DNA of 43,967 nucleotides, taken from the IMG/VR virus record IMGVR_UViG_3300037473_000101, positions 1 to 43,967 of that record; one strand, 5' to 3'. The notes under the pieces are model-generated. The model ran no database searches and was not told the origin of the DNA. It saw nothing but the letters and a program-made list of their open reading frames with translations. Shown here piece by piece: positions 1-43,967 of the stretch (the first letter of the stretch is position 1; each line of letters starts with the position of its first letter). Made by a program: the position numbers and the translations under genes. The DNA comes from a virus.

Positions 1-127
1 AGCGCTGCAAGCGCCCTGGGCACAAGTCCTACGCCGACTATGGCGGCCGGGGGATCACGGTTTGTGAACGCTGGGAGTCGTTTGAGAATTTCCTTCAGGA
101 CATGGGCGAACGCCCGAAGGGGCGCAC
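1..127. repeat. Terminal direct repeat, left copy (identical to 43841-43967)
   Basis: Base-by-base identity of 1-127 with 43841-43967. Confidence 0.97.
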
Positions 128-392
128 GCTCAGCCGCATCAACAATGAAGGGAACTATGAGCCCGGAAATTGCTGCTGGGATACTTACCGCTCCCAGGCC
201 AATAACCGCCGTTCGTCTCGGCTGATCACATTCTCTGGTCGCACAATGACCATTTCCGAGTGGTCGCGAGAGATCGGCTGCGAGCACGACGTTTTATCCC
301 ATCGCCTACGTTCAGGGTGGCCCGTAGAGCGCGCCTTGACCGCGCCTATGCGGGTCACGTCCTACAGCCGATGCTTCAAGAAGGCAGCTTAG
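1..392 (+). CDS. HNH-type endonuclease-like protein, 3' portion (the gene starts at 43552 and crosses the circular junction)
   Basis: Reading frame is continuous with 43552-43967. Motifs ERCKRPGHKSYADYGGRGITVCERWESFENFLQDMGERP, NNEGNYEPGNCCW and QANNRR, plus a C-terminal helix-turn-helix-like ITFSGRTMTISEWSREIG. Stop TAG at 390-392. Confidence 0.75.
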   Translation, partial: RCKRPGHKSYADYGGRGITVCERWESFENFLQDMGERPKGRTLSRINNEGNYEPGNCCWDTYRSQANNRRSSRLITFSGRTMTISEWSREIGCEHDVLSHRLRSGWPVERALTAPMRVTSYSRCFKKAA

Positions 393-970
393 TGGCCGGC
401 GCCTTCAACACCTGGATGCCCCTCTACGTCGCGGACTACCTCCGCAAGACGACCAGGCTGACCACAGAGCAGCATGGGGCCTATTGCCTGCTCATCATGG
501 ATTACTGGGTCAACGGCGCCCCGCCGGACGATGACGTTGCTCTGGCCCAGATTGTCCGGCTCCCCCTCAACCAGTGGCGCAAGCACCGGCCCGTGATCCT
601 TTCTCTCCCCGGAGAGGCCTTCTCAGTCAAAGACGGGAAGTGGGTTCATGGCCGCATCGAGGATGAACGAATGAAAGCATTCGCCATCACCGAAGTGCGC
701 CGCAAGGGAGGGCAAGAGCGACAACGGCTCAGCAAACAGACAGCACATGCTGAAGCTCAAGCTACAGCAGGAAGGCCAGCAGAAAGCCAGCAGGCGGCGA
801 GACCTTCACATAGAACCATACATAAATCCTCTACCGAGCTTGTTGCCGCGCGCGACCCTTTGCCCTCTGTGGAGGCAGGGTCGTCGCGCGACGCTCAGGC
901 AATCGGCAGCTTCACCGGCGGGACTATCTCTCGGCTTTTGGAGCAAGCGGCTGGAGGGAAGAAGTTTTGA
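392..970 (+). CDS. DUF1376 (YdaU-like) family protein
   Basis: Motif WMPLYVADYLRKTTRLTTEQHGAYCLLIMDYW. GTG at 392 overlaps the upstream TAG by 1 nt and is preceded by GAAGG. Alternative ATG at 371. Confidence 0.7.
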   Translation: MAGAFNTWMPLYVADYLRKTTRLTTEQHGAYCLLIMDYWVNGAPPDDDVALAQIVRLPLNQWRKHRPVILSLPGEAFSVKDGKWVHGRIEDERMKAFAITEVRRKGGQERQRLSKQTAHAEAQATAGRPAESQQAARPSHRTIHKSSTELVAARDPLPSVEAGSSRDAQAIGSFTGGTISRLLEQAAGGKKF

Positions 971-1001
971 GGATGACCATGGAGCAATGTGAAAAGGCGG
1001 G

Positions 1002-1205
1002 GTGTGCGGCATGAGCGAGAAGAACGAAGACGGGTTCTATCATCGCCCAACATTTGCTGTGCAGTCATGGCAGATGCAAGCCCCTTATCGGCACATGGAG
1101 TATGTGCTGCGCACCATCCCTCGGAACGGCTGGTATGTGACCCAGAAGTGGGAACGCGGGGCTTGGCGCGACCTGCCGATTACCTGGGATGATCCGGTTT
1201 GCTGA
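1002..1205 (+). CDS. Hypothetical protein (67 aa)
   Basis: ORF in the gene-dense plus-strand block. GTG at 1002 follows AAGGCGGG. Alternative ATG at 1011. Confidence 0.5.
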   Translation: MCGMSEKNEDGFYHRPTFAVQSWQMQAPYRHMEYVLRTIPRNGWYVTQKWERGAWRDLPITWDDPVC

Positions 1206-1237
1206 TAGGGGCGAAGCTATGGAGGAGAGGATGGGCG

Positions 1238-1654
1238 ATGTACAAGAACGCCTTTGAAAACCAGCAGCGCCGCGCGGACTTCATCAAGCTTGCTGACTTG
1301 GCCGGCGGGACAGAGACCCAGACGCCCGAGGAGCGGCGCCGGAACCTCGTCGCCCGGATTAAGCAACTCGACGCTGAGATCCAGGCTTGCGACGACCGCA
1401 CCGAGAAGAAGCGGCTCGGAAAGTTGAAGTGTGACCTCCAGGAAGAAGCCAGGGCGATCCGCCCGAAATACAACGGCCACCGCGACGTGGCGAATTTCAT
1501 CGTGGACGCCATGCGTGAGCGCCTGCCAGCTCCGCAGGTCAAGATCATCATCAACGCGGGGGTCAAGGCCTACGAGGAATACATGGCCTCTCATAGCGAA
1601 GTCATTGAAGCGGAATCAAAATCCGCAATTGTTTCACAGAAACATTCCCAATGA
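1238..1654 (+). CDS. Hypothetical protein, coiled-coil rich
   Basis: ATG at 1238 preceded by GGAGGAGAGG. The ORF runs to a TGA that overlaps the next start. Confidence 0.6.
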   Translation: MYKNAFENQQRRADFIKLADLAGGTETQTPEERRRNLVARIKQLDAEIQACDDRTEKKRLGKLKCDLQEEARAIRPKYNGHRDVANFIVDAMRERLPAPQVKIIINAGVKAYEEYMASHSEVIEAESKSAIVSQKHSQ

Positions 1655-8090: not shown

Positions 8091-9062
8091 ATGGCTTCAC
8101 CCGGACTCTCGGAAATCGTCACCACCACGCTTCGCAACCGCCAGCCCACCATCGCCGACAACGTTCTGAATAACAACGCCCTGCTTCTGAAGATGAAGCG
8201 CGGCGGGAACGTGCGCCCCTTCTCGGGCGGCCGGACCATGGTGGAACCGCTCTATTGGGCGGAAAACAGCACCTACACCCGGTACTCCGGCTATGACGTG
8301 CTGAACATCAACCCATCGGACGTGATCTCTGCGGCGGAATACGACCTGAAGCAGGCCGCCGTCGCCGTCTCGATCTCCGGCCTCGAGGAATACCAGAACC
8401 AGGGCGAAGAGGCGGTTCTCGACCTCCTCGGCTCCCGCATCGAGAACGCCGAGACCACCATGCAGAACGGCATTTCGTCCGATCTCTATTCGGACGGAAC
8501 CGCGGATGGCGGCAAGCAGATCGGCGGCCTTCAGCTCATCGTCGCCGACACTAACACCAACACGGTCGGCGGCATATCGGCCTCGACCTATTCCTTCTGG
8601 CGCAACGTCAGTTTTGACGCGACCACGGACGGCGGCGCGGCCGTTTCGCCGGCCAACATCGGCGATTACATGATGAGGGTCTATCAGCAGCTCAAGCGAG
8701 GTGTTGACGGCCCGAACCTCATCATCGCCGACAACAACTATTACCGCGCCTACTGGGAAAGCCTTACGGCGATCCAGCGCATCACGTCCGACAAGGACCT
8801 TGCGTCCCTGGGCTTCACCAACATCGATTTCATGGGCTCGCCTGTGGTCATGGACGGTGGAATCGGCGGCGCGTGCCCGACCAACCACATGTACTTCCTC
8901 AATACCAAGTACATGAAGTACCGCCCCGCCACGGGTCGGAACATGGACGCGATTGCGCCCGACCGCTTCAGCATCAACCAAGACGCCATGGTCAAACTGA
9001 TCGGCTGGATGGGCAACATGGTTGCCTCCGGCCGGAAGTTCCAGGGCGTCTTGAAGGATTAA
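8091..9062 (+). CDS. Major capsid protein
   Basis: 323 aa. N-terminus SEIVTTTLRNRQPTIADNVLNNNALL is typical of podophage HK97-fold capsid proteins. Position after the scaffold. Stop TAA at 9060-9062. Confidence 0.8.
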   Translation: MASPGLSEIVTTTLRNRQPTIADNVLNNNALLLKMKRGGNVRPFSGGRTMVEPLYWAENSTYTRYSGYDVLNINPSDVISAAEYDLKQAAVAVSISGLEEYQNQGEEAVLDLLGSRIENAETTMQNGISSDLYSDGTADGGKQIGGLQLIVADTNTNTVGGISASTYSFWRNVSFDATTDGGAAVSPANIGDYMMRVYQQLKRGVDGPNLIIADNNYYRAYWESLTAIQRITSDKDLASLGFTNIDFMGSPVVMDGGIGGACPTNHMYFLNTKYMKYRPATGRNMDAIAPDRFSINQDAMVKLIGWMGNMVASGRKFQGVLKD

Positions 9063-9083
9063 GCGCGGGAAAGGAACAGGAAA

Positions 9084-9614
9084 ATGAGCAGCTACTTCTC
9101 AATCGAAAACCGCGCCGGGGTTGGCTATGGCACCGGCTTTGCCGATGTCAGCTCGACGCAGGGTCCCTATGGCTTGGGAACGATTCTTCGAGCCAAGGAC
9201 AGCGCGACCACGGCTCTTGGTGTGGGCGAGTTCATCTATCTGCTCTGCACCTCCGCCACCGTCGTTGGCTCTCTGGTCACCTACGACCAGGCCCAGGGCC
9301 TCGCGGCGCCGGTCTCGACCACCACGGAACGTTCGGGCCGCCCGGTTGCCGTTGCCATGGCGGCGGCTGCTGCTGGTCAATACTTCTGGGGCCAAATCGA
9401 CGGCGTCGCGGTCATGGCAAAGGGCGTCGTGGACTTCCCCACGGCTTCCCCGATCTACCGCTCCGGCGTCACGGCGGGGTACATCACCGTCACGGCGGCC
9501 TCCGGAAACCAGGTCTTGGGAGCGGTGACGGCCAATTCGTCCTCGGTCTCCTCGACCACCTCGCTCATCAACGTGCAGATCAATCGTCCGCACCTCCAGG
9601 GCCAGATCTCTTAA
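9084..9614 (+). CDS. Capsid cement/decoration-like protein (DUF2190-like pattern)
   Basis: 176 aa directly after the capsid gene. G/A/V-rich beta pattern RPVAVAMAAAAAGQYFWGQIDGVAVMAKG. In the same frame as the capsid gene, separated by TAA plus 7 sense codons. Confidence 0.55.
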   Translation: MSSYFSIENRAGVGYGTGFADVSSTQGPYGLGTILRAKDSATTALGVGEFIYLLCTSATVVGSLVTYDQAQGLAAPVSTTTERSGRPVAVAMAAAAAGQYFWGQIDGVAVMAKGVVDFPTASPIYRSGVTAGYITVTAASGNQVLGAVTANSSSVSSTTSLINVQINRPHLQGQIS

Positions 9615-28576: not shown

Positions 28577-28588
28577 CCAGGGATCTTG

Positions 28589-30223: not shown

Positions 30224-30302
30224 TCTAAACTCCTTTCTTGAACCTGATCGGTCTCTCCGTCACCTCTGGATCTCCACCCACCTAGCCCCTGTTCCCGAGC
30301 AA

Positions 30303-30620: not shown

Positions 30621-30663
30621 GCGGGCTTTCCCTTCAGTGCGCGGATGGCGGTCTGGGCGCCAG

Positions 30664-31405: not shown

Positions 31406-31506
31406 GGTTGACTCCCGGCGATGCTGTAGAGCAGAACGCAAATAGGTATCCAAACCAGAAAAAAGAACGTCCAGAAACCGGCGTCATTCTCGGGCTTATA
31501 TCTCAC
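31402..31506 (-). CDS. Small membrane peptide (34 aa)
   Basis: GGAGG plus GTG at 31506. MRYKPENDAGFWTFFFLVWIPICVLLYSIAGSQP. The stop overlaps the next ATG. Confidence 0.35.
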   Translation of the reverse strand: MRYKPENDAGFWTFFFLVWIPICVLLYSIAGSQP

Positions 31507-31543
31507 CGCACACCTCCTGCGCTGCTATCCTTCCCATCCTGGG

Positions 31544-32653
31544 TCATGGGTGATGATCCGGGCCTTCTCGGCACGTCTCCGTTCGGTTAGGGGAACCGCA
31601 GACTTCGCAGGCGCCGCCTCCGAGAACAGCGTAGTGTGGCTTCCCGTCCTGGGGTGCTAGGCGGTCGATGATGGCGAGGAAAGCCGCAATCTCCGGACCA
31701 ACTATTGCGCCGCCGTTTCCCATTTCCGCTCGCATCCAATCGAGCAGCTTGCACTCCGCCTCGCTCAACCTCTGCGGCGGGTTGTGGCGCTGGAGGATCT
31801 CCAGGATATCGGCTCGGACTTCGCACCATGTCACATCGTCCGCCGAGAACTTCCGCTGAGACCAGTCCTTAAAGCGGCGGTAAATCCGCGTCATGATCTC
31901 ATCGATCTCTGCCGCTTTCTTCTCCCACCCGTCTGCCGGGGCGGGGAAGGGGAAATGCGCCGCCGGATAATCGCAATTCGGGCACTTATTAAACCACCCA
32001 TCCGGTGCGGAAGGTGGGGCGGGTTGAGGGGCTGAGGAGAGCCGGGTGAGGAGCGCGGCGGCTTCACGTTTAAGCGCGACTTCCTTCGCAAGCAGCTCGT
32101 CTCCATGCTGATACAGCGCGATGCCAAGGTCGCAGCATTCCACAGCGACACGCTCCATCCCAACACCGTTGTCAACGTAGTGGTATGGGTCACGCCCGCA
32201 GAATGAACAGACCGGCCCGTGGCTTTCGTCCGGGCACAGCCGCGTCACCATCTCCCGTACTTCTGCATCGAACTCAGCCGCCAGTCCATCCAGGGCGGGT
32301 TGAGGGGCGCTCTGGGTGGCGCGGGCTTTGCGCACCATGTCAAGGACATCACAGCGAACCTCGTAAGATGAGATCGGTGGATTGTCGCGGTGAAGCTGCG
32401 TAAAATACTCAACGATCTCGTCAACCGTTGCCGCCTCCCGCTCCCCTTCCACGGCTGCCTGGGATGCTGCGTTGAGACGGTTCCACACGGCGATGGCTTC
32501 GGCTGGCGTCTCGTAGAATGCCGTCGAGGCAAGGCAGGCGGTGCACGCGGCCCTCGCCAGGTTGGCGAAATGCTCTGACCCGCAGTCCTTCAAGATGATC
32601 GCGCGACCTTCGCACTCGCACGGCTCCAGTTCGTTGCTATGGTCGCTCGGCAT
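31544..32653 (-). CDS. Multi-domain Cys-rich protein with an N-terminal Lar-family (restriction-alleviation) domain
   Basis: LEPCECEGRAIILKDCG...ACTACLASTAFYETPAEAIAVWNR matches the Lar hallmark (Cys pairs plus EAIxxWNxR). Internal repeats DEIVEYFTQLHRDNPP / DEIMTRIYRRFKDW. ATG at 32653 after AAGGAGCCCCCA. Confidence 0.55.
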   Translation of the reverse strand: MPSDHSNELEPCECEGRAIILKDCGSEHFANLARAACTACLASTAFYETPAEAIAVWNRLNAASQAAVEGEREAATVDEIVEYFTQLHRDNPPISSYEVRCDVLDMVRKARATQSAPQPALDGLAAEFDAEVREMVTRLCPDESHGPVCSFCGRDPYHYVDNGVGMERVAVECCDLGIALYQHGDELLAKEVALKREAAALLTRLSSAPQPAPPSAPDGWFNKCPNCDYPAAHFPFPAPADGWEKKAAEIDEIMTRIYRRFKDWSQRKFSADDVTWCEVRADILEILQRHNPPQRLSEAECKLLDWMRAEMGNGGAIVGPEIAAFLAIIDRLAPQDGKPHYAVLGGGACEVCGSPNRTETCREGPDHHP

Positions 32654-33191
32654 TGGGGGCTCCTTGGGAGAGGGCTTCGCGTGCGCGCACGTTGATGCGC
32701 AGTAAGTCGTGATCAAGAACAACGACCAGCAACCGCTTATCTTCAGGAACTTGATCGCGTGTCTCCCGCGTGATTGCGACGATCTCCTCCAGCGCCTTGC
32801 GGGCTTCGGATAGGGCTTGCTCGGCTGCTTCCTGGCAGGCTCGGGCTTCGTTCCGTTCCGTCTGCCAACTTTCCATTTCGCGTTGAAGCGCCCTGCAATC
32901 GGCTTCGTGGACGCGTTGAAGTGCTTTCACGCCCGCATCATGGCGCGCTACGTCCAGGCCCAGGGCTTCGAGGCGGTCAGTCTGTTCGTCAGCCTGCTCT
33001 GAAAGAGCGCACGAGCGACCGAGAGCCCCCGCGTATTTGTCCCTCAGGTCCGTCAACTCCTTCTCAAGGGCTTCGATGCGGTCGGCGCCCCCATAAAGCG
33101 CAACCGCCATCTTGGAAGTCGGCACGTAATCGTCCGCGATCCCTCGCAGTCTCGCCACAAGATCCTGGCGCGGGTCGGCCTTATCGGTCAT
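32637..33191 (-). CDS. Coiled-coil protein (184 aa)
   Basis: ORF with an ATG start and heptad-rich sequence. Confidence 0.6.
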   Translation of the reverse strand: MTDKADPRQDLVARLRGIADDYVPTSKMAVALYGGADRIEALEKELTDLRDKYAGALGRSCALSEQADEQTDRLEALGLDVARHDAGVKALQRVHEADCRALQREMESWQTERNEARACQEAAEQALSEARKALEEIVAITRETRDQVPEDKRLLVVVLDHDLLRINVRAREALSQGAPNAERP

Positions 33192-33406
33192 GGCTGGACC
33201 TCTCCGAAGGTCAGTGGAAGCTTAAAGCGCTTGTTCACCGCTCGTCGCGCCAGGGCAGCGGACTTCCATTCCCCGGGGAAATCCGCCCACCATTGGCCCT
33301 TGGCGATCGGATAGATGCCGCAGACATAGGCCCCATTTGCCAGCAGCTTCCGCCCCTTCCACTGCATGGTGGCCTTGACCGTCTTCATCTTCCCAGCCTT
33401 ATTCAT
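33188..33406 (-). CDS. Hypothetical protein (72 aa)
   Basis: ATGA-type overlap on both sides. Confidence 0.55.
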   Translation of the reverse strand: MNKAGKMKTVKATMQWKGRKLLANGAYVCGIYPIAKGQWWADFPGEWKSAALARRAVNKRFKLPLTFGEVQP

Positions 33407-33726
33407 GCTGATTTCCTCTCATGCTTCAATCGGTCCTTCACGGGTGCGACTAGTCCCATCTCCACCATCGCAGTCAGGGTCAGGACAATCGCTTCATCCA
33501 TGCGCGCTCTGCGCTGGTCTCTCGTCATGTCGGGGCCGTTGTCGATGTCGTGATGGCATTCGAGACACAGGGCGGCAGTCTGGCAGTCATCGGTTTTGAT
33601 CCCCATGCCCTTGCCCTTGTTTCGATGCGCCACCTGTGCAGGCTTGCCGCAGAACACACAGGGGATCTGCGCAACGGCAGCAAGCCATTCCGAGCAGCGA
33701 TAGACTGTGCGCTTGAAATTGCTCAC
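33403..33726 (-). CDS. DUF1364 / YbcO-like Cys/His-rich putative nuclease
   Basis: CVFCGKPAQVAHRNKGKGMGIKTDDCQTAALCLECHHDID. Confidence 0.5.
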   Translation of the reverse strand: MSNFKRTVYRCSEWLAAVAQIPCVFCGKPAQVAHRNKGKGMGIKTDDCQTAALCLECHHDIDNGPDMTRDQRRARMDEAIVLTLTAMVEMGLVAPVKDRLKHERKSA

Positions 33727-34208
33727 CGGACTTCCGCCATCCTTCCTGTTGCCTCATAGAAGTTCGTCACGAGCTGATCCCACTTCTTCCCTGCAACCCT
33801 GTCTTCGCTGAGTTCGGATCGGGAGGTGACGCCGCAGAGACGGCGCACGGCTTCGGCGGCCTCCGTCACGTCCGGGAGCGGATGAGCGACGCTCAGCCAT
33901 AGACAAAAGCCGTCGTCATTGCAGAGGATGCCTGCCTGTTGTGCTCTCGAAATCTGGTGGAAAGGAGTTCGCGGCTTCCCGGGCTCGCCGCGCTGTTGAC
34001 CAGTAGGCAAGGCGGGCGATGCACCGCTCCCGGGACTGGCTTTCCCTGTCTCTGCATCGTAGGGGACCATCGCCACGCCGAACGCTTGACCGAGAGGAGC
34101 GGCGGCAAGGTCGGCCCAATCGCTATCCGGACCGATCTCAAGGGTGATGTAAAATCCCTTCGATGAGCGGCGGAAGGCGTTCAGCTTGGCGTCGAGTTGG
34201 ATGGGCAT
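33723..34208 (-). CDS. Hypothetical protein (161 aa)
   Basis: ORF with an ATG start, adjacent to ssb. Confidence 0.6.
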   Translation of the reverse strand: MPIQLDAKLNAFRRSSKGFYITLEIGPDSDWADLAAAPLGQAFGVAMVPYDAETGKASPGSGASPALPTGQQRGEPGKPRTPFHQISRAQQAGILCNDDGFCLWLSVAHPLPDVTEAAEAVRRLCGVTSRSELSEDRVAGKKWDQLVTNFYEATGRMAEVR

Positions 34209-34582
34209 TACCAGGGCTGCTCCTCTTGCTTCTCGCCCTTGCCGTCGAGCATGACCAGCTCACCGCGGAACTGCTGCAATACGACCTCCGTCGTGTATTG
34301 GTCGTGCCCGTCCTTCTCCCACTTGCGAGTTTGCAGGGAGCCCTCCAGGTAGACCTTGGAACCCTTCTTCAGGTATTTCTCGGCGACTTCGCTGAGCCGG
34401 TCATTGAAGATTACGACGCGGTGCCACTCCGTCTTTTCCTTTCGGTCGCCGGAGTTTTTGTCCTTCCAGCTTTCAGATGTCGCGATGGAAAGGTTGGCGA
34501 TCTTCTTGCCGTCCTGCGTCGTGCGGATCTCCGGGTCACGGCCCAGATTGCCCACGAGGGTCACTTTGTTCACGCTGCTCAT
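34208..34582 (-). CDS. ssb: Single-stranded DNA-binding protein
   Basis: [42 protein letters not shown]...EWHRVVIF...[17 protein letters not shown], with an acidic C-terminal tail ending EEQPW. Confidence 0.9.
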
Positions 34583-35286
34583 GCGATCTCCGCGAAAAGG
34601 TTGTCGATGTTGTCCGCGGCCTTCGGACTGACGAGACGAAGCTCTTTGATCGCCGCTTCGTTGAGCCGGTAATGCTCCTGTCGGACTTCCTTGGAAAGTT
34701 GGCGCGCTCGGTTGATGAAGACGTTGGTGAACACCTTGGCCGTGTCCGGTAGCCATTCCTGCGGCTTCGGGACGACAACAGGCGCCGGGCCATCTTGCTT
34801 CGGCGGCGCCTCCTCTGCCTTCTTCTCGGGGGACAGAGGCTCACCGGAGAGCAGCCGGCGCAAGCGGCGGTATTCGTGTTCCTTGATCTTGTAGGACTTG
34901 CCCATGGGCTCGATTTCAACCCAAGGCGGGTCCACGTCGTACAGGTATCGCCCCACGCCCCACTTGACGGCCGCGCGTTTGAAGGCGTCAGAGAGCGCAC
35001 CTTTCTCCGCCTCAACGTCGGTATCCCCGGCTCCATCGGACTTCCATATCCACTCGCCCCCGAGCCGGAGGCCGATTTCGCAGACCGTCTTGCCGTTGGC
35101 ATGGGGGAAGCGGTTCTGCCAGTTCTCCGCACCCATCACATCGTCAAGGCGGTCCTGCACGTCGCGGCTATCGATGTAGGCGAGCGCGAGGCCCTTGGTG
35201 TTCTCCTTGTTCTTGGAGCCGATGCGCCACGACACACGATCAGCGGGGAAGGGGGCGCGGAGTTGCGTCAACCGGTTATCCATCAT
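34579..35286 (-). CDS. Rad52/22-family single-strand annealing protein
   Basis: [24 protein letters not shown]...[25 protein letters not shown]. Confidence 0.8.
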
Positions 35287-35786
35287 CGCACCGTGATCGT
35301 CACTGATTTGCCCCCATTGGGGAGCTGAGCGCCTTCGATCTTCTCGCCGGACTCCAGCGCATCGCGGAGGCGGCGCTTGTCCAACTTCGGATCGGCATCG
35401 TTGAAGTATTGCTTCGGGATCTTTGTGGGATCGGCTACAATGACGCCGCGTCCCCCGTCGCGCAGACCAAGCGTCATGTTCGGTCCTTCGACCTTCTCAA
35501 GCTGGAGGTTCTGCATGGTGGCGGTGACGACGCGGCGCTTCTTCTCGGCCCGCTCTCCAAGCCGGGAAGCGCGCTCCTGAAGCTCTTTGACGCGGAGCCT
35601 GATTGCGTCCACGAAATACTCGTCTTGAAGGGCGCTCTCGGCGATCTCCAGCAAGCATTCCTCAACATCGGTCTCGGACTGCATCACCTCGACCAGCTTG
35701 ACCGCATCGAAGCTCTCAGCCTCTAAACTTCTCTTGAGCCAAGCCCATTTCTCCAGCTCGGCGGACAGTCTGACTTGCTGGTTCAT
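35283..35786 (-). CDS. Gp157-like (siphovirus Gp157 family) protein
   Basis: Coiled-coil N-terminus and TKIPKQYF...D...KLDKRRLRDAL pattern. Adjacent to the annealase, as is usual for this family. Confidence 0.5.
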   Translation of the reverse strand: MNQQVRLSAELEKWAWLKRSLEAESFDAVKLVEVMQSETDVEECLLEIAESALQDEYFVDAIRLRVKELQERASRLGERAEKKRRVVTATMQNLQLEKVEGPNMTLGLRDGGRGVIVADPTKIPKQYFNDADPKLDKRRLRDALESGEKIEGAQLPNGGKSVTITVR

Positions 35787-36004
35787 GACCGCACCGCGTC
35801 CACGAGCTGCTGCCTGTGTTCTTCGGCCGCCTGTGCCTGGCGTTCGCAGATGGCGAAGTGCTCTAGGTTCTTCCTGCACCATTCCAACTGCTTCGGCCCC
35901 AAGCTTCCGGTCCTGATCTTCATCGTCTCCCCATTCCCAGGAGCAGAGAGGACAGGGACCTTGAGTACCTGGGCCATGCGTGAGGAGGGGATTACGTCGG
36001 TCAT
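35783..36004 (-). CDS. Hypothetical protein (73 aa)
   Basis: ATG at 36004 (MTDVIPSS...). Overlapping stop/start on both sides. Confidence 0.5.
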   Translation of the reverse strand: MTDVIPSSRMAQVLKVPVLSAPGNGETMKIRTGSLGPKQLEWCRKNLEHFAICERQAQAAEEHRQQLVDAVRS

Positions 36005-36159
36005 GGGTTGAATCCTTCCGTGTCTGCCAAGGTGGCGCGGATCGACCGCAGTTCCTGCTCTCGCAGCGGAATCTTCTCCGTGCGATGCCAGATCAGAATG
36101 TCCTTCAGCTCTTGGCGCAGCAGCTCGATTGCCTTGTTCTTCGTCATCTTTGGCTTCAT
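36001..36159 (-). CDS. Hypothetical protein (52 aa)
   Basis: MKPKMTKNKAIELLRQELKDILIW... ATGA coupling. Confidence 0.45.
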   Translation of the reverse strand: MKPKMTKNKAIELLRQELKDILIWHRTEKIPLREQELRSIRATLADTEGFNP

Positions 36160-36293
36160 GACGCTCCCCAAGCAGCAACGAAGACCACGACAAAGTCGGT
36201 AAACAGGAGCCCCGCTAGAACGAGATGAAACAGGTCGCTCTCGGTGAGGGCTCCGAACGCCACGGCGGCGGGGATGAGGCTGTCGGGGGTCAT
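36156..36293 (-). CDS. Small membrane protein (45 aa)
   Basis: MTPDSLIPAAVAFGALTESDLFHLVLAGLLFTDFVVVFVAAWGAS. ATGA coupling on both sides. Confidence 0.4.
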   Translation of the reverse strand: MTPDSLIPAAVAFGALTESDLFHLVLAGLLFTDFVVVFVAAWGAS

Positions 36294-36841
36294 GCCACGG
36301 CTCCTTCGCCATCTTCTTCGATGACTTCCTGGTACGGCGCGCTCCGGACGGGCATCAGCAGACCGTCTCCCTCGTCAAAGGCGAAGAACATCGGCTCATG
36401 CTGGTTGCTTGAGTTGGCGCAGCGGAGTCCTGGAAGAGCGAGAAGTTGCCGGATATACTTCTCCTGGAACAGGTTGCCGCGCATCGACACAACGCGGTAG
36501 CGGTCGTCTGCAACCTTCATTGTGCCGTTGCAGGTCGGGCAGACACAGTGGCAAGTGGGGCACGAGTGAACCTGCCCGCCGTCGCAATCATCGCATTCCT
36601 TTTCTGCCGGTGCAGGAAGGGAAATCCTGACCGGCGAAAGATCGGTGACAGCGTGGGCCTCGAACAACTTCGGCGCGTTGGGCGCGGCGTCACTCTCAGG
36701 AATATCAGCGCGAGACCGCACGCGAACGATGATGTGGCCGTTCGACGCATAAGCCTTATCGCCAACCGCCCATGGCCGCAGAAGCGCAGGGCGCCCGGGG
36801 TCAGTGCTGCAAAACTGCTGGAGGTCAATCATCTGTCTCAT
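36290..36841 (-). CDS. Hypothetical protein with a CxxC-cluster zinc-finger segment (183 aa)
   Basis: CDDCDGGQVHSCPTCHCVCPTCNGT. Confidence 0.6.
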   Translation of the reverse strand: MRQMIDLQQFCSTDPGRPALLRPWAVGDKAYASNGHIIVRVRSRADIPESDAAPNAPKLFEAHAVTDLSPVRISLPAPAEKECDDCDGGQVHSCPTCHCVCPTCNGTMKVADDRYRVVSMRGNLFQEKYIRQLLALPGLRCANSSNQHEPMFFAFDEGDGLLMPVRSAPYQEVIEEDGEGAVA

Positions 36842-36862
36842 CCTCTCAGGTGCTTATGGCGG

Positions 36863-37096
36863 TTAGGTGTTCTGGGGTTGGGGTGAGGGGGTGGGCTGCT
36901 CATCCTTGAACCAGCAGAAACGCTCGCGCGGCCAGTGGATGTAGTGGTGCTCGCCGCCGGTCGGCTTGTCGTATTGGCTGATCACCAGCACCGTGTTCCC
37001 CGCCGTCCAGAAGAACGTTTTTACGCGCTCATAGACAACCTGAACCGTGCTGTCGTCGCGGTAGAGCGTGAGCTTGCGTTCCTTGCGATCGGTCAT
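36863..37096 (-). CDS. Hypothetical protein (77 aa)
   Basis: ORF with an ATG start in the early block. Confidence 0.6.
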   Translation of the reverse strand: MTDRKERKLTLYRDDSTVQVVYERVKTFFWTAGNTVLVISQYDKPTGGEHHYIHWPRERFCWFKDEQPTPSPQPQNT

Positions 37097-37143
37097 CGTT
37101 CATCCTTCTCTCTCCCACCCCCGATACGGGAGGCGGGGTTGGG

Positions 37144-37572
37144 TTACGCGGTGTGATCAGCGACGAACTTGCGAATCCGCTTGGCGACTTGCTTGGGGGT
37201 GGGGTTGCGCTTCTCGTCCGGGTACTGCCAATCCGCGAACAGATATTCGGCATCGTTGGCGTGAATGGAAAAGAACGCCGTGGCTGCGCCGAAATCAGAG
37301 TGGCCCTTGTACGAGACCTGCTCGAACTCAACGTCGGTTTTGAGTCCGCGCTTCCGAAACCACGGGTGAAACCCCGCGAACCCCATGGCGCACGCCACGG
37401 TGCCGCAGCCCGCTTGGATACCCACATAGCCCATGGATTTGTAGACCTTGGCCTCGCTCCCCCAGGTGCCCATGCAAAAGCTGATTTTGCCGTCCTGCGG
37501 GACCTTGAGCGAGCGACCGTCAGAGCATCGCTCCAACTCACTCGCCAACTTCAAAAGCCTTTCCTTATTCAT
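37144..37572 (-). CDS. Hypothetical protein (142 aa)
   Basis: ORF with an ATG start in the early block. Confidence 0.6.
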   Translation of the reverse strand: MNKERLLKLASELERCSDGRSLKVPQDGKISFCMGTWGSEAKVYKSMGYVGIQAGCGTVACAMGFAGFHPWFRKRGLKTDVEFEQVSYKGHSDFGAATAFFSIHANDAEYLFADWQYPDEKRNPTPKQVAKRIRKFVADHTA

Positions 37573-37593
37573 TCTCTCATCTCCGATCCTGGG

Positions 37594-37833
37594 TTACGCG
37601 GTGGGGTCTGCCTTGGCGAGGGCGGCGCGCTGCTTGTGGCTCGTGGTATTCCATTCGAGCGAACAGCCGCACGGGCATGAGGTGATGTAGACCCCGCACT
37701 TCCGGCAGTGGTCCTCGCTCCAGCCGGAACAGCCTTCCGCGCCGCCGCAATACCCCGATGCCGAATAGTCGGTGAAATCGTGCGGGCACGCTTCGACGCG
37801 GCGCCAAAATTCTTCATCGAACTGTTTTGACAT
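37594..37833 (-). CDS. Cys-rich hypothetical protein (79 aa)
   Basis: CPHDF...YCGGAEGCSGW...HCRKCGVYITSCPCGCS. Confidence 0.55.
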   Translation of the reverse strand: MSKQFDEEFWRRVEACPHDFTDYSASGYCGGAEGCSGWSEDHCRKCGVYITSCPCGCSLEWNTTSHKQRAALAKADPTA

Positions 37834-37871
37834 CTTCTTTCTCTCCTCCCTTTCAGGGGGTACGGTGATGT

Positions 37872-38504
37872 TCAGGCGGACTGCACATTGGTGGCGATGA
37901 ACTCGGCGTAGGCCGGCGGGATTGCCTGCGAGAGTTCCCGCCGGTTCATCCAGTCGATCCCCATTACTTCCTGCGCGTGCTTTAAATTCAGCGGCTTCCT
38001 TGAAATGCCGCCCCGGGTAGATTTGCGCACCCCCTTAAAGGGGCCGCCCGTCCCCGTCACGTCGATCGGCTTAGGACATAGCGAGTGGTTGCATTGAGGG
38101 CTCAACAACAACGGCTCGCTGGTCTCGAAGCGACGATGCCGCCAAACGCCAAGCCCGAACATTGAGCCGCAGAGGGTCACCGGATTGCGGAGATCCGAGC
38201 CCACGACGTTCTCGATCGCCCACGGGCGCCCGCTCTCGCGGAGCATCTCCCGGACCGGATCTATCAGCTTGCCGCGCTTTCCCTTCGCTAAGCTCTTGAG
38301 GGCGGAATAGTCTTGGCATGGCGGGCTTGCCCAGATGAAGTCGAAGCGCGAGAGATCGAATGGCGGCTTCAGCGCGTCAGCCTGGACAAAGGCATCACCG
38401 CAATAGTTCGGCTGCGGCTCGATATCGACTCCGACCACAAAGAACCCTGCACGTTGCAGCCCCCTGGTGGCCCCGCCGGCTTTGCAGAAAAGATCAAGAG
38501 CCAT
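37872..38504 (-). CDS. DNA (cytosine-5)-methyltransferase, short phage type
   Basis: Motif I DLFCKAGGATRG, motif IV SPPCQDYS, motif VI ENV, and C-terminal QAIPP. ATG at 38504, with an alternative GTG at 38522. Confidence 0.8.
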   Translation of the reverse strand: MALDLFCKAGGATRGLQRAGFFVVGVDIEPQPNYCGDAFVQADALKPPFDLSRFDFIWASPPCQDYSALKSLAKGKRGKLIDPVREMLRESGRPWAIENVVGSDLRNPVTLCGSMFGLGVWRHRRFETSEPLLLSPQCNHSLCPKPIDVTGTGGPFKGVRKSTRGGISRKPLNLKHAQEVMGIDWMNRRELSQAIPPAYAEFIATNVQSA

Positions 38505-38509
38505 CGGCT

Positions 38510-38641
38510 TCACTCTACGCACTCCAACTCAACGTCTTCGCCGTCCTGGCCGGTGCCTTCGCAGTCCGGGCAGACATCAAGATGATCGTCGGGGTCAATT
38601 CCGGAGCCGCCGCACCGCTCACAAGGGCCAACCATCATCAT
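38510..38641 (-). CDS. DnaJ-type zinc-finger mini-protein (43 aa)
   Basis: MMMVGPCERCGGSGIDPDDHLDVCPDCEGTG (CxxCxGxG twice). Under the ORF-track cutoff. Confidence 0.4.
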   Translation of the reverse strand: MMMVGPCERCGGSGIDPDDHLDVCPDCEGTGQDGEDVELECVE

Positions 38642-38644
38642 TGC

Positions 38645-38866
38645 TCACTCGTTCTTGAGCTTCATTGCGCCTGCGATGCCCTTCAAATTCTCAAGGGCCG
38701 CGAGGATGTCGAAAGCCTCGTTGCTGTCCTCGTCCTTCAGAAGCAGAGCACAAGCCTCCTCGCAGTCCCGGAGGAGGTCGCGAACGTCCCCCCAGGTGAT
38801 CGCCGCCTCGCTCATCTGCTGGCGCTCTCTGTGAAGGCTGTTGAGGATGTGGGTCTGGGAGGTCAT
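38645..38866 (-). CDS. Hypothetical protein (73 aa)
   Basis: ATG at 38866 preceded by GAGGAGACCCCC. Confidence 0.55.
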   Translation of the reverse strand: MTSQTHILNSLHRERQQMSEAAITWGDVRDLLRDCEEACALLLKDEDSNEAFDILAALENLKGIAGAMKLKNE

Positions 38867-38876
38867 GGGGGTCTCC

Positions 38877-39224
38877 TCAGGCGGACTCTGCCGCGATTGC
38901 AACAAGGCGGTCGTATTGGGCGATGACCTGCTTGTCGCCAGCGAAGTAGCGGCGGGTCCACTCTTTGTCGCCGCGCAGGGTCGAAAGCGCCCTCGCAGCC
39001 TCAGTGGCGGACATGGGCGCGGATGGCGCAGCGTTCCACCGCTCAGCGATCTCTCGCGCAATCTCGCCGCTTTTGCCGAAGTTCACCGACACAGCACCGA
39101 TTGTCAGGATCGCATCGCCGCCCCACGAGTAGCCGTTGCCGTCATGGCATGGAGTGAATGAAACGGTTGCTTTCGTGTCGCTCATATCCATCACGGCTTC
39201 AGAGAGAGGGGCGGGGAGAGTCAT
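38877..39224 (-). CDS. Hypothetical protein (115 aa)
   Basis: ATG at 39224 preceded by AGGAGATCCCCC. Confidence 0.55.
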   Translation of the reverse strand: MTLPAPLSEAVMDMSDTKATVSFTPCHDGNGYSWGGDAILTIGAVSVNFGKSGEIAREIAERWNAAPSAPMSATEAARALSTLRGDKEWTRRYFAGDKQVIAQYDRLVAIAAESA

Positions 39225-39234
39225 GGGGGATCTC

Positions 39235-39495
39235 CTACACATATGCTCCGACGAGCCAGAACCGCCGGATGACGCGATACCCGTGGTCGCCACGGCGCTC
39301 GTCCTTTGGGTTGTTGATCGGGACCACGCCTCGGACTGTTGCGAACTTGGAAAGCAGAGACGACCACCGCTCGGCGGATGACCAGCTCGGCGCCTTCACA
39401 ACGATCTGCGAGCCGTAGACCTCGATGCTAAGCGCTGGAATGCCGACGCGGGCGAGCTTCTCTTGCATCTTCTGCTGCGGGGTCTTGTCGCTCAT
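39235..39495 (-). CDS. Hypothetical protein (86 aa)
   Basis: ORF with an ATG start near the 5' end of the early-left operon. Confidence 0.55.
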   Translation of the reverse strand: MSDKTPQQKMQEKLARVGIPALSIEVYGSQIVVKAPSWSSAERWSSLLSKFATVRGVVPINNPKDERRGDHGYRVIRRFWLVGAYV

Positions 39496-39822: not shown

Positions 39823-40230
39823 TTAGGTCAGTTCCGGCAGCACCGCTTCCATCTGATCGAGCGCAGAACGGAGATCGGCCAGGCCCTGCCGATCCATCTG
39901 AAAAACAAAGTATCCGCCATTACTTAGGAGAAATACCAGCTCCGGGCGGGGGCCCCTCCCGTGTGTATTGGCGACTACCTTCCGGACCACGGCGGTCCCT
40001 TCGGGTGCCGCGAGGGGCGTAGCGTCGTCCATGGCTATAGGTTCCTGCTGAAGAGCAGCGACTGCCTGCCTAAGGGCTTCGGCCTCGTCGTGCTTAAGTG
40101 CCCGCACGCCGTTAAGAACCTTGCTGATTTTGTCTTTCGCAATACCGGACTGGCGGGCGAGAGAGGCTTGAAATCCCCGCGGCCCTGTTTCGATGGCTTC
40201 CTTTAGCCATTGAGGCGGTCGGTACTGCAT
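39823..40230 (-). CDS. CI-like HTH repressor candidate (no peptidase domain)
   Basis: FQASLARQSGIAKDKISKVLNGVRAL helix-turn-helix. Divergent from the Cro-like gene. ATG at 40230, with alternatives at 40260 and 40263. Confidence 0.6.
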   Translation of the reverse strand: MQYRPPQWLKEAIETGPRGFQASLARQSGIAKDKISKVLNGVRALKHDEAEALRQAVAALQQEPIAMDDATPLAAPEGTAVVRKVVANTHGRGPRPELVFLLSNGGYFVFQMDRQGLADLRSALDQMEAVLPELT

Positions 40231-40284
40231 GCCCCATTGTGGCGCGATTCTGACGTGCATCATATCGCTAAGACCGCACCGATG

Positions 40285-40334
40285 TCGCGCCAAACCCTCT
40301 TGACACTTGGTGCGAAGATCGCAATATTGGCGAC
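40285..40334 (+). promoter_or_regulatory. Sigma70-like promoter and overlapping operator for the Cro-like gene, predicting a leaderless mRNA
   Basis: TTGACA at 40300-40305, a 17-nt spacer, and AATATT at 40323-40328. ATG at 40335 lies 7 nt after the -10 element. Inverted repeat TCGCGCCAA (40285-40293) / TTGGTGCGA (40307-40315) brackets the -35 element. Confidence 0.5.
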
Positions 40335-40562
40335 ATGGATGTTGCGAGCCGTGTCATTGAGAAGTTTGGTGGCGCCTACGCACTGGCCGAAAAGCTGAAG
40401 TGCAGGCCGTCCACCATTTACCGCTGGACCCTCCCCAAAAAGCGCGGAGGGACCGGCGGTCACGTTCCCCAGCGGCAGCATGAAAAGCTCCTGAAGCTCG
40501 CGCGCAAGCACAACATCGCCTTGAGCTACGCAGACTTCATTCCGAAGGACGAAGCCGCATGA
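40335..40562 (+). CDS. Cro / YdaS-like small HTH regulator
   Basis: VIEKFGGAYALAEKLKCRPSTIYRW pattern. Divergent from the repressor-like gene. Confidence 0.6.
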   Translation: MDVASRVIEKFGGAYALAEKLKCRPSTIYRWTLPKKRGGTGGHVPQRQHEKLLKLARKHNIALSYADFIPKDEAA

Positions 40563-42205: not shown

Positions 42206-42336
42206 CCCTGCTCGCCGCCATTCTGCTCCTCCAGATCCCTCTCGGCATCTTCTTCGGTCGGTGCATACGGGTGGGTTCCAACCGCTCAACCTCTTCTCAT
42301 GTCCTCCAGTTCCGCAGGGGAAGGAGATTCGGATGA
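42202..42336 (+). CDS. Small hydrophobic-N-terminus ORF (44 aa), uncertain
   Basis: ATGA overlaps at both ends. MTLLAAILLLQIPLGIFFG... Confidence 0.3.
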   Translation: MTLLAAILLLQIPLGIFFGRCIRVGSNRSTSSHVLQFRRGRRFG

Positions 42337-42614
42337 ACTCAGATTTCTGGACTGACCGCCGTGTTCGCATTCTCACCAGCATGTGGGAAGCAGAGAAGAG
42401 CGCCAGCGTTATCGCCGGAGCGCTCAACTGCACTCGGGATATGGTAATCGGGAAGGCGCATCGGCTGGGCCTTAAGGCTCGCCTGTCGCCGATCAAAGCT
42501 GACGCCGTGCTGACCGAGCAGCGGCGCGCCGCAACAAGGAAAAAGCGCCGTTACTATCTCGTCAACCAGCGTCGCGAATCCATGGGCCTCCCTCCACTCC
42601 CGAGGGAAGCATGA
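42333..42614 (+). CDS. GcrA-like cell-cycle regulator homologue (short, 93 aa)
   Basis: WTDRRVRILTSMWEAEKSASVIAGALNCTRDMVIGKAHRLGLKAR matches the GcrA N-terminal DNA-binding domain. ATG at 42333 follows GGAGATTCGG. Confidence 0.75.
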   Translation: MNSDFWTDRRVRILTSMWEAEKSASVIAGALNCTRDMVIGKAHRLGLKARLSPIKADAVLTEQRRAATRKKRRYYLVNQRRESMGLPPLPREA

Positions 42615-42787
42615 CCGACCAACAGAAAGCCTCCCAACGCCTGCACTACGCCATCAACAGAGCAGCTGATGAATACGGGCGCCCGTTACCAGCAGGGCAA
42701 GCGATGTTCATAGCACAGAAGCTTATGCAGGACTTGCCCACGATAGTGGAGGCCATTGCCAACTCAGCGCAGGGGAAGGCGACATGA
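42611..42787 (+). CDS. Hypothetical protein (58 aa)
   Basis: ATGA coupling at both ends. Under the ORF-track cutoff. Confidence 0.45.
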   Translation: MTDQQKASQRLHYAINRAADEYGRPLPAGQAMFIAQKLMQDLPTIVEAIANSAQGKAT

Positions 42788-42960
42788 AGGCTGCACTGGA
42801 AATTGCACTCGGCGTGCTGGTCGCCTTCGTCGTTATCCCGCCGCTGACATGGGTCTTTTCTGCTGAGACCCCGTTGGTCCTCAAGATGGCGCTGGGCGGC
42901 TGCATAATCGCCTTCGGGTGGAATGTTGTCTGCTTTCTGGATCGGAAGCTAAACCGATGA
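42784..42960 (+). CDS. Small membrane protein (58 aa)
   Basis: ALEIALGVLVAFVVIPPLTWVF and MALGGCIIAFGWNVVCFL. ATGA coupling. Confidence 0.45.
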   Translation: MKAALEIALGVLVAFVVIPPLTWVFSAETPLVLKMALGGCIIAFGWNVVCFLDRKLNR

Positions 42961-43319
42961 CCCTCGCCGACATCCTCGCCAAGCACGGCATCAAGCAAGA
43001 GAAGCCCCCTAAGTATCGAAACGAACGAGTAGGGGAATATGACTCCAAGCTGGAGATGCGAGGCTTTGGGGAATTGCAGATCCGTGAGAAGGCCGGGGAA
43101 ATCTCCGAACTGAAGCTCCACCCTAAGTTCCCGATCGTGTGGCCTGGCGCAGAGTTCCCGCTGACCACGGTCGAAATGGACGCCTCATTCATCGAGAACG
43201 GCGAGCTTCGCGTGATCGACTGGAAGGGCGCTGACACGGCCCTGAGCCGTCTGAAGCGCAACCTCCTCCTCGCAGCATACGGCATCGAAACACAGGTCAT
43301 CAAGAAGGTGAGACGATGA
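42957..43319 (+). CDS. DUF1064-family protein (PD-(D/E)XK-like putative nuclease/resolvase)
   Basis: KYRNERVGEYDSKLEMRGFGELQ...EISELKLHPKF...VEMDASFIENGELRVIDWKG...SRLKRNLL pattern. Confidence 0.55.
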   Translation: MTLADILAKHGIKQEKPPKYRNERVGEYDSKLEMRGFGELQIREKAGEISELKLHPKFPIVWPGAEFPLTTVEMDASFIENGELRVIDWKGADTALSRLKRNLLLAAYGIETQVIKKVRR

Positions 43320-43555
43320 GCACAAAGAACACGGCCACGTTTGCCTATTTCCCCGGCTCTGGCCCTGCTGGGAAGGTCTGCGGTCAGTGCCGCCACTTGA
43401 GGCAGAAACACTCCGACAAAGGCACGGAGATGAAGGGGAAGTTCTTCTGCGACAAGGCGCGAGCCTTCATCAACGTAACCTACGAGACCAAGGCCATTCC
43501 GCGCGACGCGGCTGCCTGCAAGTACTTCGAGGAGAAAGCGACGGTGGCAGCATGA
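43316..43555 (+). CDS. Hypothetical Cys-containing protein (79 aa)
   Basis: ATGA overlaps on both sides. CGQCRHL...FFCDK...AACKYF. Confidence 0.55.
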   Translation: MSTKNTATFAYFPGSGPAGKVCGQCRHLRQKHSDKGTEMKGKFFCDKARAFINVTYETKAIPRDAAACKYFEEKATVAA

Positions 43556-43967
43556 GCCAACGAGACCAGATTGTCCGAGCCCTGAAGCGGGGTGATTCAC
43601 TCGGCCCCTACATCATTATAGGCGACGCGCCGCGGTCCCCGGCTGGACATCGCAGGCTCCGAGTTCAATGCACGGTATGTGGTGGGGAGAAAGTCACCCA
43701 GGTCCACAACGCAGCAAGATCGAAATCTTGCGGGTGTCTGACGAAGCAGATCCTGCGGCAGGCAAGGACCGTTCACGGGCATTCGAAGGGGAGGGGAGGC
43801 AATGGGAGCCCTACCTATAGTTCATGGCATTCGATGCACGAGCGCTGCAAGCGCCCTGGGCACAAGTCCTACGCCGACTATGGCGGCCGGGGGATCACGG
43901 TTTGTGAACGCTGGGAGTCGTTTGAGAATTTCCTTCAGGACATGGGCGAACGCCCGAAGGGGCGCAC
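43552..43967 (+). CDS. HNH-type endonuclease-like protein, 5' portion (continues at position 1 of the circle, ending at 392)
   Basis: ATG at 43552 in an ATGA overlap. No stop to the window end. RVQCTVCGGEKVTQVHNAARSKSCGC...TYSSWHSMHERCKRPGHKSYADYGGRGI. Confidence 0.75.
   Translation, partial: MSQRDQIVRALKRGDSLGPYIIIGDAPRSPAGHRRLRVQCTVCGGEKVTQVHNAARSKSCGCLTKQILRQARTVHGHSKGRGGNGSPTYSSWHSMHERCKRPGHKSYADYGGRGITVCERWESFENFLQDMGERPKGR
43841..43967. repeat. Terminal direct repeat, right copy (identical to 1-127)
   Basis: Base-by-base identity with 1-127. Confidence 0.97.

Follow-up and report, generated by a model that had tools for sequence, protein, structure and literature searches.

The stretch of DNA analysed here, called the window, is the IMG/VR virus record IMGVR_UViG_3300037473_000101 at its full length of 43,967 nucleotides, and its main feature is a compact module that consists of a dif-like site, with arms of the type bound by host XerC and XerD, and the adjacent gene of a 109-aa protein of an undescribed family. 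The module lies where related phages carry a tyrosine integrase. It is quite possible, if somewhat short of probable, that it represents a Xer-dependent integration module similar to that of TLCφ, which would have replaced the integrase gene and the phage attachment site (int/attP).

Structure of the dif-Like Site

The plus strand at positions 29805-29843 reads CGTTCGCATAA / TGTATA / TTAGTTGAAGA / TTATGGAAAAT. A dif-like XerCD site had been proposed in the first-pass annotation; it was confirmed at exactly these coordinates, and it is more structured than had been noted, with extra bases inside it and further XerD arms in its vicinity. As listed in Table 1, a predicted XerC-binding arm is followed by the canonical crossover hexamer, and the 19-nt stretch GTTCGCATAATGTATATTA is identical to the bona fide dif of Neisseria and Proteus. 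The last 11 bases of the site match the XerD arm of Rhizobiales and Rickettsiales (PMC2731167). The dif sequence is TAATCGCATAA-GATATA-TTATGGAACTT in Agrobacterium and GATTCGCATAA-GGTATA-TTATGGAATAT in Bradyrhizobium (B. japonicum), Brucella and Mesorhizobium have similar sites, and the XerD arm of Ehrlichia and Rickettsia is TTATGGAAAAT (PMC2731167). The spacing is non-canonical, as 11 extra bases place the good XerD arm 17 bp from the XerC arm and not 6 bp; a "repaired" 28-mer of the site matches sites in alphaproteobacterial replicons. In a comparison with the dif sites of other bacteria, the XerC arm and the centre correspond to canonical dif and the XerD arm is of the Rhizobiales type, at this non-canonical spacing.

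Two further, inverted copies of the XerD arm were found (Table 1), and the genome's three TTATGGAA cores are all confined to 580 bp (29264-29843). A chance origin of the site was rejected on the grounds of this clustering and of the 19 nt common with real dif. The two inverted arms flank a MUG113 cargo gene, the start codon of which is contained in the second arm (29650-29660); this arm is conserved at +163 nt in the related contigs L014 and L017. The conserved block ATCAACATCTAGT keeps a constant distance of 24 nt from the centre in several variants of the module, and an inverted copy of it lies at 28554-28566, beside the DnaA boxes described below. The sigma-70-like promoter that overlaps the site is not conserved in the more distant variants. 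The possibility that the resemblance to dif is a by-product of this promoter was rejected, since the distant variants lose the promoter hexamers while the XerC arm and centre (half-dif) are invariant.

Conservation of the Module and the 109-aa Protein Family

The sequence TCGCATAATGTATA was found to be invariant 51-83 nt downstream of the small gene in every readable contig (36 contigs, 10 variants), and TCGCATAA followed by TGTATA is invariant across all 10 variants. The neighbouring genes and most of the intergenic and flanking DNA differ among the variants. The 11 bases at the degenerate position also differ by variant (TTCATTGAAGA, TTCAATGAAGA, ACTCGACAAAT, TTAGGACCAAG and others), with T at position 1 and/or G at position 5 kept in every one. 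A true XerD arm, TTTCCATAA, lies nearby in eight of the nine variants scored. In the subfamily with the 109-aa protein it is 11 bp away and is accompanied by the inverted copy at +163, and in the subfamily with a 115-aa protein it is 176-212 nt away on the XerC side of the half-dif, the side on which conserved DNA was found. The best explanation for this distribution appears to be a horizontally mobile module, composed of the small gene, the half-dif, one or more XerD arms and often DnaA boxes, which would have entered 10 otherwise different lineages.

The 109-aa protein shows no Pfam match at or near threshold and no PHROGs match, and its AF2 model is helical with a pLDDT of 79.5. Among 5.8 billion proteins, six clusters at 58-91% identity belong to its family; a profile search increased the number to 32 clusters, all of which are metagenomic. 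The two subfamilies are 24-28% identical to each other. The protein is a candidate accessory or activation factor for the Xer enzymes.

Within the 109-aa subfamily, the member that diverges most has 134 aa (58% identical) and is found with a half-dif in a co-directional gene array at L026:1339-9193, where GGACT, peptidase C26, glutamine amidotransferase and COOH-NH2 ligase genes follow, an arrangement that resembles a DNA hypermodification cluster; no XerD arm is present within 460 nt in this variant. The cargo genes of three phages (MUG113 in the window, DUF6847 in L014 and another in L017) each start at an ATG within the XerD arm TTATGGAAA. Sequence similarity between the phages ends just past the XerD arm at +163, as if cassettes were swapped there.

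Position of the Module and Absence of an Integrase

The same leftward Gp157-Rad52-SSB operon as in the window is present in L003 (Rad52 59% identical), L010 (66%, a 43.3-kb contig) and L012 (a 45-kb NCBI contig). In these three relatives, the operon ends in a tyrosine integrase, which is followed by convergent late genes; in the window, the small gene and the Xer sites occupy that place, where the leftward early operon has its distal end. L014, a 43.8-kb contig of an NCBI metagenome-assembled genome, has the module and no integrase within 10 kb on either side. The Bradyrhizobium prophage ppBjS10J-1 ends with a winged helix-turn-helix gene and a 425-aa gene that adjoins a tRNA-Asp fragment. The simplest reading of this synteny is a cassette swap in which int, xis and attP would have been replaced by the small gene and the Xer sites. 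Like the lambda-type int-xis-attP cassette, the module stands at the distal end of a leftward early (PL-like) operon after the recombination genes; unlike that cassette, it has no Int or Xis, and host Xer arms take the place of the Int core and arm sites.

The Pfam and PHROGs scans covered about 70 open reading frames (ORFs) of the early region, among them alternative and antisense frames, along with every late gene and 12 long ORFs in antisense orientation. In these approximately 100 ORFs, essentially all of the genome with antisense frames included, no match was found to a tyrosine or serine recombinase or a transposase, nor to ParA/ParB, a helicase, a primase, a DNA polymerase or a named replication initiator; the candidate ORFs gave no match to recombinase families even at E values up to 1. 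The absence of an integrase, transposase, ParA/ParB, helicase, primase and polymerase, which the first reading of the ORFs had claimed, was thus borne out. The accompanying statement that no recognisable replication proteins exist holds for the initiator, helicase, primase and polymerase but was overstated, as SSB, a DUF1376 protein and a recombination module (Rad52-type protein and Gp157) are present.

In the integrase-bearing relatives, a helicase, primase or polymerase is likewise missing from the annotation of ppBjS10J-1 and from the approximately 20 kb read of L010 and of L012. The absence of these genes appears to be common to the integrase-bearing relatives and not peculiar to the window genome. 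As the scans revealed no initiator, helicase, primase or polymerase of the phage's own, its replication is presumably left largely to host enzymes. In the integrase-bearing L012, a 163-aa protein with the C-terminal, DNA-binding domain of DnaA is encoded next to a GapR-like protein (L012:5136-5929), a possible sign of contact between phages of this group and either DnaA boxes or the host replication machinery.

DnaA Boxes near the Site

A DnaA-box cluster with an AT-rich tract had been noted at 28.3-28.6 kb, and it was found again as four boxes together with stretches of 40-47% GC at 28250-28400 and 28450-28600. The only two perfect DnaA boxes of the genome, TTATCCACA, both lie in the cluster at 28490-28544. 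In L030, L032 and L035, DnaA boxes stand 9-10 nt before the XerD arm, so that the two cis elements treated as separate in the window belong together there. In the window the boxes are 1.3 kb from the dif-like site, with the MUG113 gene, a 57-aa ORF and a tRNA between them. The integrase-bearing relatives L003, L010 and L012 showed no such cluster. The cluster may serve as an origin, or it may have an architectural or regulatory role within the module.

The two perfect palindromes listed in Table 1 lie just upstream of the AT-rich promoter-like tract, the DnaA boxes and the tRNA, and have no further copy in the genome. They look like operators for a dimeric regulator.

Temperate Status

The divergent CI-like/Cro-like gene pair reported in the first-pass annotation stands as far as the arrangement and the promoter are concerned; the family evidence is thin, with a weak assignment for the CI-like protein and matches below threshold for the Cro-like one (Table 1). 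The former has no S24 peptidase domain in Pfam and no relative in the PDB. A near-consensus promoter, TTGACA(40300)-17-AATATT(40328), stops 6 nt short of the cro-like ATG, and the cro-like mRNA would have almost no leader (promoter within 40300-40337). Homology of the two proteins to the corresponding proteins of L010 was considered and rejected.

L032 carries the module together with a repressor of the helix-turn-helix plus S24 type. In the 10 kb upstream of its small gene there is no integrase, and the contig stops about 330 nt downstream of that gene. The presence of this repressor with the module, with no integrase in the 10 kb read, indicates a temperate lifestyle. From its own architecture and from its relatives, we infer that the window genome is also temperate.

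Proposed Mechanism of Xer-Dependent Integration

In the proposed mechanism, the genome, circular after infection, would present the dif-like site to host XerC/XerD. The small protein would be made from an early transcript equivalent to the lambda-like one for Int and Xis, and it would activate or direct the Xer enzymes independently of FtsK, whereupon the phage would recombine with the chromosomal dif. One junction would restore a working dif from the XerC arm of the phage and the XerD arm of the host, and the other would retain the degenerate arm, by which the prophage would be guarded from FtsK-driven excision, as in TLCφ. On induction, the small protein would be expressed again and excision would follow.

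Integration is favoured over self-resolution for three reasons. The central hexamer is identical to that of canonical dif in all variants, an identity that is required for recombination with dif and not for self-resolution. The degenerate sequence at the canonical XerD position still keeps T1 and/or G5, and T at position 1 and G at position 5 are reported to be crucial for the XafT-driven integration of TLCφ (PMC9226527). The module also sits in the int/attP slot, where it would be co-transcribed with the early-left genes.

The attP of TLCφ has a dif-matching XerC arm and centre and no proper XerD arm, and the adjacent xafT activates XerD without FtsK (PMC9226527). The window module resembles this Xer-exploiting integrative mobile element (IMEX) of Vibrio cholerae in that it has no integrase, in its dif-matching XerC arm and centre, in its degenerate XerD arm, which retains T1 and/or G5 as in TLCφ (PMC9226527), and in the small gene beside the site. 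Unlike TLCφ, a small filamentous-phage satellite of a gamma-proteobacterium, the window represents a 44-kb tailed double-stranded DNA (dsDNA) phage with a probable Rhizobiales host, for which integration is proposed. The 109-aa protein shows no XafT-like match and would at best be a functional analogue. Additional bona fide XerD arms at distances of 11 bp or about 200 bp, together with DnaA boxes, likewise set the window apart. Neither the displaced arms nor the DnaA boxes have a precedent in such a setting, and DnaA could act as an origin-binding factor or as an architectural cofactor.

A further parallel is given by the dif-type double jelly-roll prophages and CTX-type inoviruses of Vibrio, which are dsDNA or single-stranded DNA phages without an integrase (PMC12715192). 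Their terminal genes are a repressor and a small activator (P16/P15, RstR/XafT), and their lysogeny module moves horizontally among unrelated phages (PMC12715192). These phages were defined from prophages integrated at dif, whereas the window module is known in the attP type only; moreover, they are non-tailed and smaller than 16 kb, and their protein family and host class differ from those of the window phage.

Search for Integrated Copies and Weighing of the Alternatives

Several results weigh against Xer-dependent integration. All 36 site-bearing contigs have phage DNA on both sides of the site (attP-type), with no host junction and with flanks that are constant within each variant. Prophage copies in genomes, which the first-pass annotation had suggested looking for, were not found: the module is absent from 185,579 representative genomes (GTDB), both by DNA pattern and by protein profile. 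IMG/VR searches with the 109-aa protein and with both subfamily profiles were empty, and a scan of JGI metagenomes added only two more attP-type contigs and no integrated copy. The geometry is unprecedented, with a distance of either 17 bp or about 200 bp between the XerC arm and a good XerD arm, and the 109-aa protein has no similarity to XafT and no known fold (Pfam; PDB by fold and by sequence). The CI-like protein is weakly supported, and the window phage itself is not proven to be temperate. DnaA boxes linked to the site would suit a replicon-type module at least equally well. The absence of copies is an absence of evidence, as the family is very rare in these databases. If the samples are bulk metagenomes, contigs of the attP type alone favour a free, replicating or episomal state, and if they are viromes, this observation is uninformative. 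The contig ends of L016 and L018 were examined as possible branch points of the assembly graph at the site; they lie at different positions and are uninformative. The proposal that lysogeny is outsourced to host Xer enzymes through the dif-like site stands in part: synteny and the conserved module speak for it, and no integrated copy, junction or lysogen has been found.

An episomal, plasmid-like prophage is a distinctly unlikely explanation. It would replicate from a DnaA-box origin, the Xer sites would serve cer/psi-like multimer resolution with an accessory sequence of about 200 bp on the XerC side, and the small protein would be a regulator or accessory. The linkage of DnaA boxes to the Xer arms in L030, L032 and L035, their clustering in the window and the lack of such a cluster in the integrase-bearing relatives fit this state, as does the circular or attP arrangement of all 36 contigs with no host junction. 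The conserved DNA on the XerC side, which recalls cer and psi accessory sequences, and the predicted use of host XerC/XerD are likewise shared with these plasmid sites. However, cer, psi and the pdif sites have arms 6-8 bp apart and centres that are free to differ from dif, whereas in the module the canonical position is occupied by a degenerate XerD arm, the good one is 17 bp or 163-212 nt away, and the centre keeps the dif hexamer, which self-resolution does not need. In addition, cer, psi and pdif reside on replicons with Rep and Par functions, and no Rep, ParA/ParB or toxin-antitoxin system was detected in the window genome. P1 (Cre-lox) and other phage-plasmids offer the example of a tailed temperate phage that, as might be the case here, remains unintegrated and has its dimers resolved by site-specific recombination; P1, however, supplies its recombinase, replication initiator and partition system itself, and no counterpart of these was detected in the window genome. 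The replication initiator and ParAB-type partition genes of P1/N15/SSU5-like phage-plasmids are thereby missing. No extrachromosomal contigs of about 44 kb were found in isolate genomes, and the int/attP location of the module also speaks against an episome.

It is somewhat unlikely that the phage is effectively lytic and that the Xer module serves pdif-like cassette swapping, tethering or timing of the DNA by XerD/FtsK, or control of cargo-gene transcription. Such a role would account for the cargo genes (MUG113, DUF6847 and others) that begin at the ATG in the same XerD arm, for the loss of similarity right after it, and for the inverted XerD arms around MUG113, which resemble the inverted Xer sites that bracket the cargo of Acinetobacter pdif modules. 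The promoter-like sequence over the dif-like site, the lack of known lysogens, and the small gene and half-dif of L026 in a co-directional array with DNA-modification-like genes point in the same direction. It leaves unexplained the int/attP position of the module, the invariant dif hexamer and the co-variation of the small protein with the site; L032 carries an S24-type repressor, and the promoter is lost in distant variants while the half-dif stays. A recombinase of a new fold that is present but unrecognisable, with the dif-like site as its attP or irrelevant, is very improbable. Many early ORFs have no family and could hide one (the 369-aa Lar-like protein and proteins of 183, 184, 161 and 156 aa), but no ORF matches a recombinase family, even at the relaxed E value used for the candidates, none of these ORFs travels with the module as the 109-aa gene always does, and the arms are specifically of the host XerC/XerD type.

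Genome Layout and Other Features

The first and last 127 bp of the window are identical, which shows that it is a circular assembly with a true genome size of 43,840 bp; the GC content is approximately 60%. The window originates from a contig of a JGI metagenome. Genes were predicted using a self-trained codon model, and the result agrees with the gene calls stored for the contig. The coordinates of the features are given in Table 1.

Table 1. Coordinates of the features described in the window.
Feature	Positions	Strand	Remarks
DUF1376 (YdaU-family) protein	371-970	+	PF07120 1e-16; phrog_3992, phrog_9327, phrog_6451, PHROGs label "primosomal protein"
Lysis cassette	23.9-25.5 kb		
Small genes	as far as 27.6 kb		
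Gene-poor stretch	27.6-29.9 kb		
Two perfect 16-bp palindromes, CTACTTGnnCAAGTAG (CTACTTGTACAAGTAG, CTACTTGATCAAGTAG)	28267-28303		21 bp apart, operator-like
Four DnaA boxes (at most 1 mismatch)	28490-28544		55 bp; 11- and 13-nt spacing
Ser-type tRNA, anticodon UUA (ochre-suppressor-like), long variable arm	28648-28747	+	Rfam RF00005, 52.4 bits
Third XerD-arm copy, ATATTTTCCATAA, inverted	29262-29274	-	13-nt perfect inverted repeat with 29833-29845
MUG113/T5orf172 (GIY-YIG-like) cargo gene	29300-29656	-	PF13455 2e-6
Second XerD-arm copy, inverted	29650-29660	-	11-nt perfect inverted repeat with 29831-29841
XerC-binding arm (predicted), CGTTCGCATAA	29805-29815	+	matches Rhizobiales arms GATTCGCATAA, TAATCGCATAA (PMC2731167)
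Central region, TGTATA	29816-29821	+	canonical dif crossover hexamer; same in every variant
Sigma-70-like promoter, TTGATA-18-TAATAT	29819-29848	-	overlaps dif-like site, faces MUG113
Degenerate XerD-arm position (11 bases), or insert, TTAGTTGAAGA	29822-29832	+	
Rhizobiales/Rickettsiales-type XerD-binding arm (predicted), TTATGGAAAAT	29833-29843	+	displaced by one helical turn
Conserved block, ATCAACATCTAGT	29844-29856	+	other strand ACTAnATGTTG
109-aa protein, undescribed family	29894-30223	-	last gene of leftward operon, just upstream of dif-like site
Long leftward operon	29894-39495	-	
SSB	34208-34582	-	PF00436, 1e-34
Rad52/22-type annealing protein	34579-35286	-	Pfam/PHROGs scans
Gp157	35283-35786	-	Pfam/PHROGs scans
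Divergent small-regulator pair	39823-40562		
Helix-turn-helix protein in cI position (weak assignment)	39823-40263	-	HTH_31 E=0.038
Cro/YdaS-like protein	40335-40562	+	YdaS/P22_Cro matches below Pfam thresholds
HNH endonuclease gene	43552-43967, then 1-392	+	across assembly junction; directly upstream of DUF1376 and terminase genes

After the DUF1376 gene, a small-terminase-like protein (DUF5681), the large terminase, an 817-aa portal and the major capsid protein are encoded, and podovirus-like virion genes continue as far as 23.1 kb. The last of the large virion proteins (21578-23107, plus strand) contains a SASA-type carbohydrate esterase domain and is probably a receptor-modifying tail spike. 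SSB, the Rad52-type protein and Gp157 (34208-35786) form the recombination core of the leftward operon, which also encodes a 369-aa protein (31544-32653, minus strand) with a Lar-like restriction-alleviation N-terminus. The rightward operon that follows the regulator pair includes a gene for a GcrA-like cell-cycle regulator (42333-42614, plus strand) and runs round to the HNH gene. The position of the HNH gene beside the terminase genes suggests the arrangement typical of HNH-assisted cos packaging. P1-style Xer cyclisation of terminally redundant DNA was set aside, as the site lies about 27 kb from the terminase and the HNH-terminase arrangement suggests cos ends. A literature search on the function of DUF1376 yielded nothing.

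Whole-window nucleotide searches against GenBank phages gave no relative, and the nearest sequenced phages are distant: the Bradyrhizobium prophage ppBjS10J-1, which is the closest portal relative (38% identical), Brucella Tb-type podoviruses and Myxococcus Mx8. Three features, namely the GcrA-like gene, the dif arms and the Rhizobiales-like tRNA-Ser, are indicative of a host that belongs to Rhizobiales or stands close to them. The best explanation for the genome as a whole is that the phage comes from a lineage of temperate-type, podovirus-like phages of Rhizobiales-like hosts.

The segment at 27.6-29.9 kb matches plasmids and phages at the nucleotide level via its tRNA only. This Ser-type tRNA was missed by ARAGORN and is approximately 75% identical to Rhizobiales tRNA-Ser; its anticodon loop CUUUAAA corresponds to the anticodon UUA, by which UAA stops would be read. 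Within 8091-9614 (plus strand), the gene of the major capsid protein terminates in a single TAA, the next head gene (9084-9614) is in frame only 7 codons further on, and 18 of the 65 predicted genes have TAA stops. Suppression at UAA could yield a capsid-decoration fusion. The 57-aa ORF (28923-29096, plus strand) has a good coding signal and is followed by a terminator-like hairpin; by eye it is ribbon-helix-helix-like, with no family match. A 94-nt tRNA-Arg(ACG) called by ARAGORN at 26806-26899 (minus strand) is below the threshold of the Rfam tRNA model and is probably a false positive or a degraded gene.

Implications

Xer-exploiting integration is established for filamentous phages and genomic islands and, since 2025, for tailless dsDNA phages. 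No report of a tailed phage that uses host Xer via a dif-like site was found in the searchable literature, where tailed phages are described as integrase-encoding. A plausible reading of the module is Xer exploitation by tailed phages that have split arms and a new accessory protein.

Dif-like sites also occur in a second, unrelated group of tailed phages (L051, L054-L063; IMG/VR, 45-51% GC), for example IMGVR_UViG_3300017913_000956 with its site at L051:10639. Eleven of 13 relatives have a complete dif-like site of 28 bp, with the canonical 6 bp between its arms, at a point between the genes of the small and the large terminase; the DNA to its left and right is that of the phage. Its XerC arm is conserved (TTGTCGCATAA), and the centre and XerD arm co-vary by subgroup (TGTATA/TTATGGAAGGG, TGTGTA/TTATGGACGCG, TGTCCA/TTATGTAATTG). 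Inspection by eye of roughly 20 kb from each of L051 and L059 showed no integrase among the ORFs that reach 170 aa.

The window module may tentatively be regarded as representing an unrecognised class of Caudoviricetes, in which lysogeny without a recombinase of their own would proceed via host XerC/XerD, a split attachment site and helical Xer-directing proteins of about 110 aa, possibly with DnaA as an accessory, and in which the module would be exchanged horizontally for int/attP. If this is true, rules that predict temperate phages from their integrases would miss such phages, and a new protein family that redirects XerCD in Alphaproteobacteria could be studied and put to use as a tool. 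In addition, the range of sites that Xer enzymes are known to recombine would be widened by the split-arm geometry. Even if the module serves episome resolution or cassette exchange, a defined element stands, in which a conserved small gene is combined with XerC and XerD arms and, in some of the 10 phage lineages, also with DnaA boxes.

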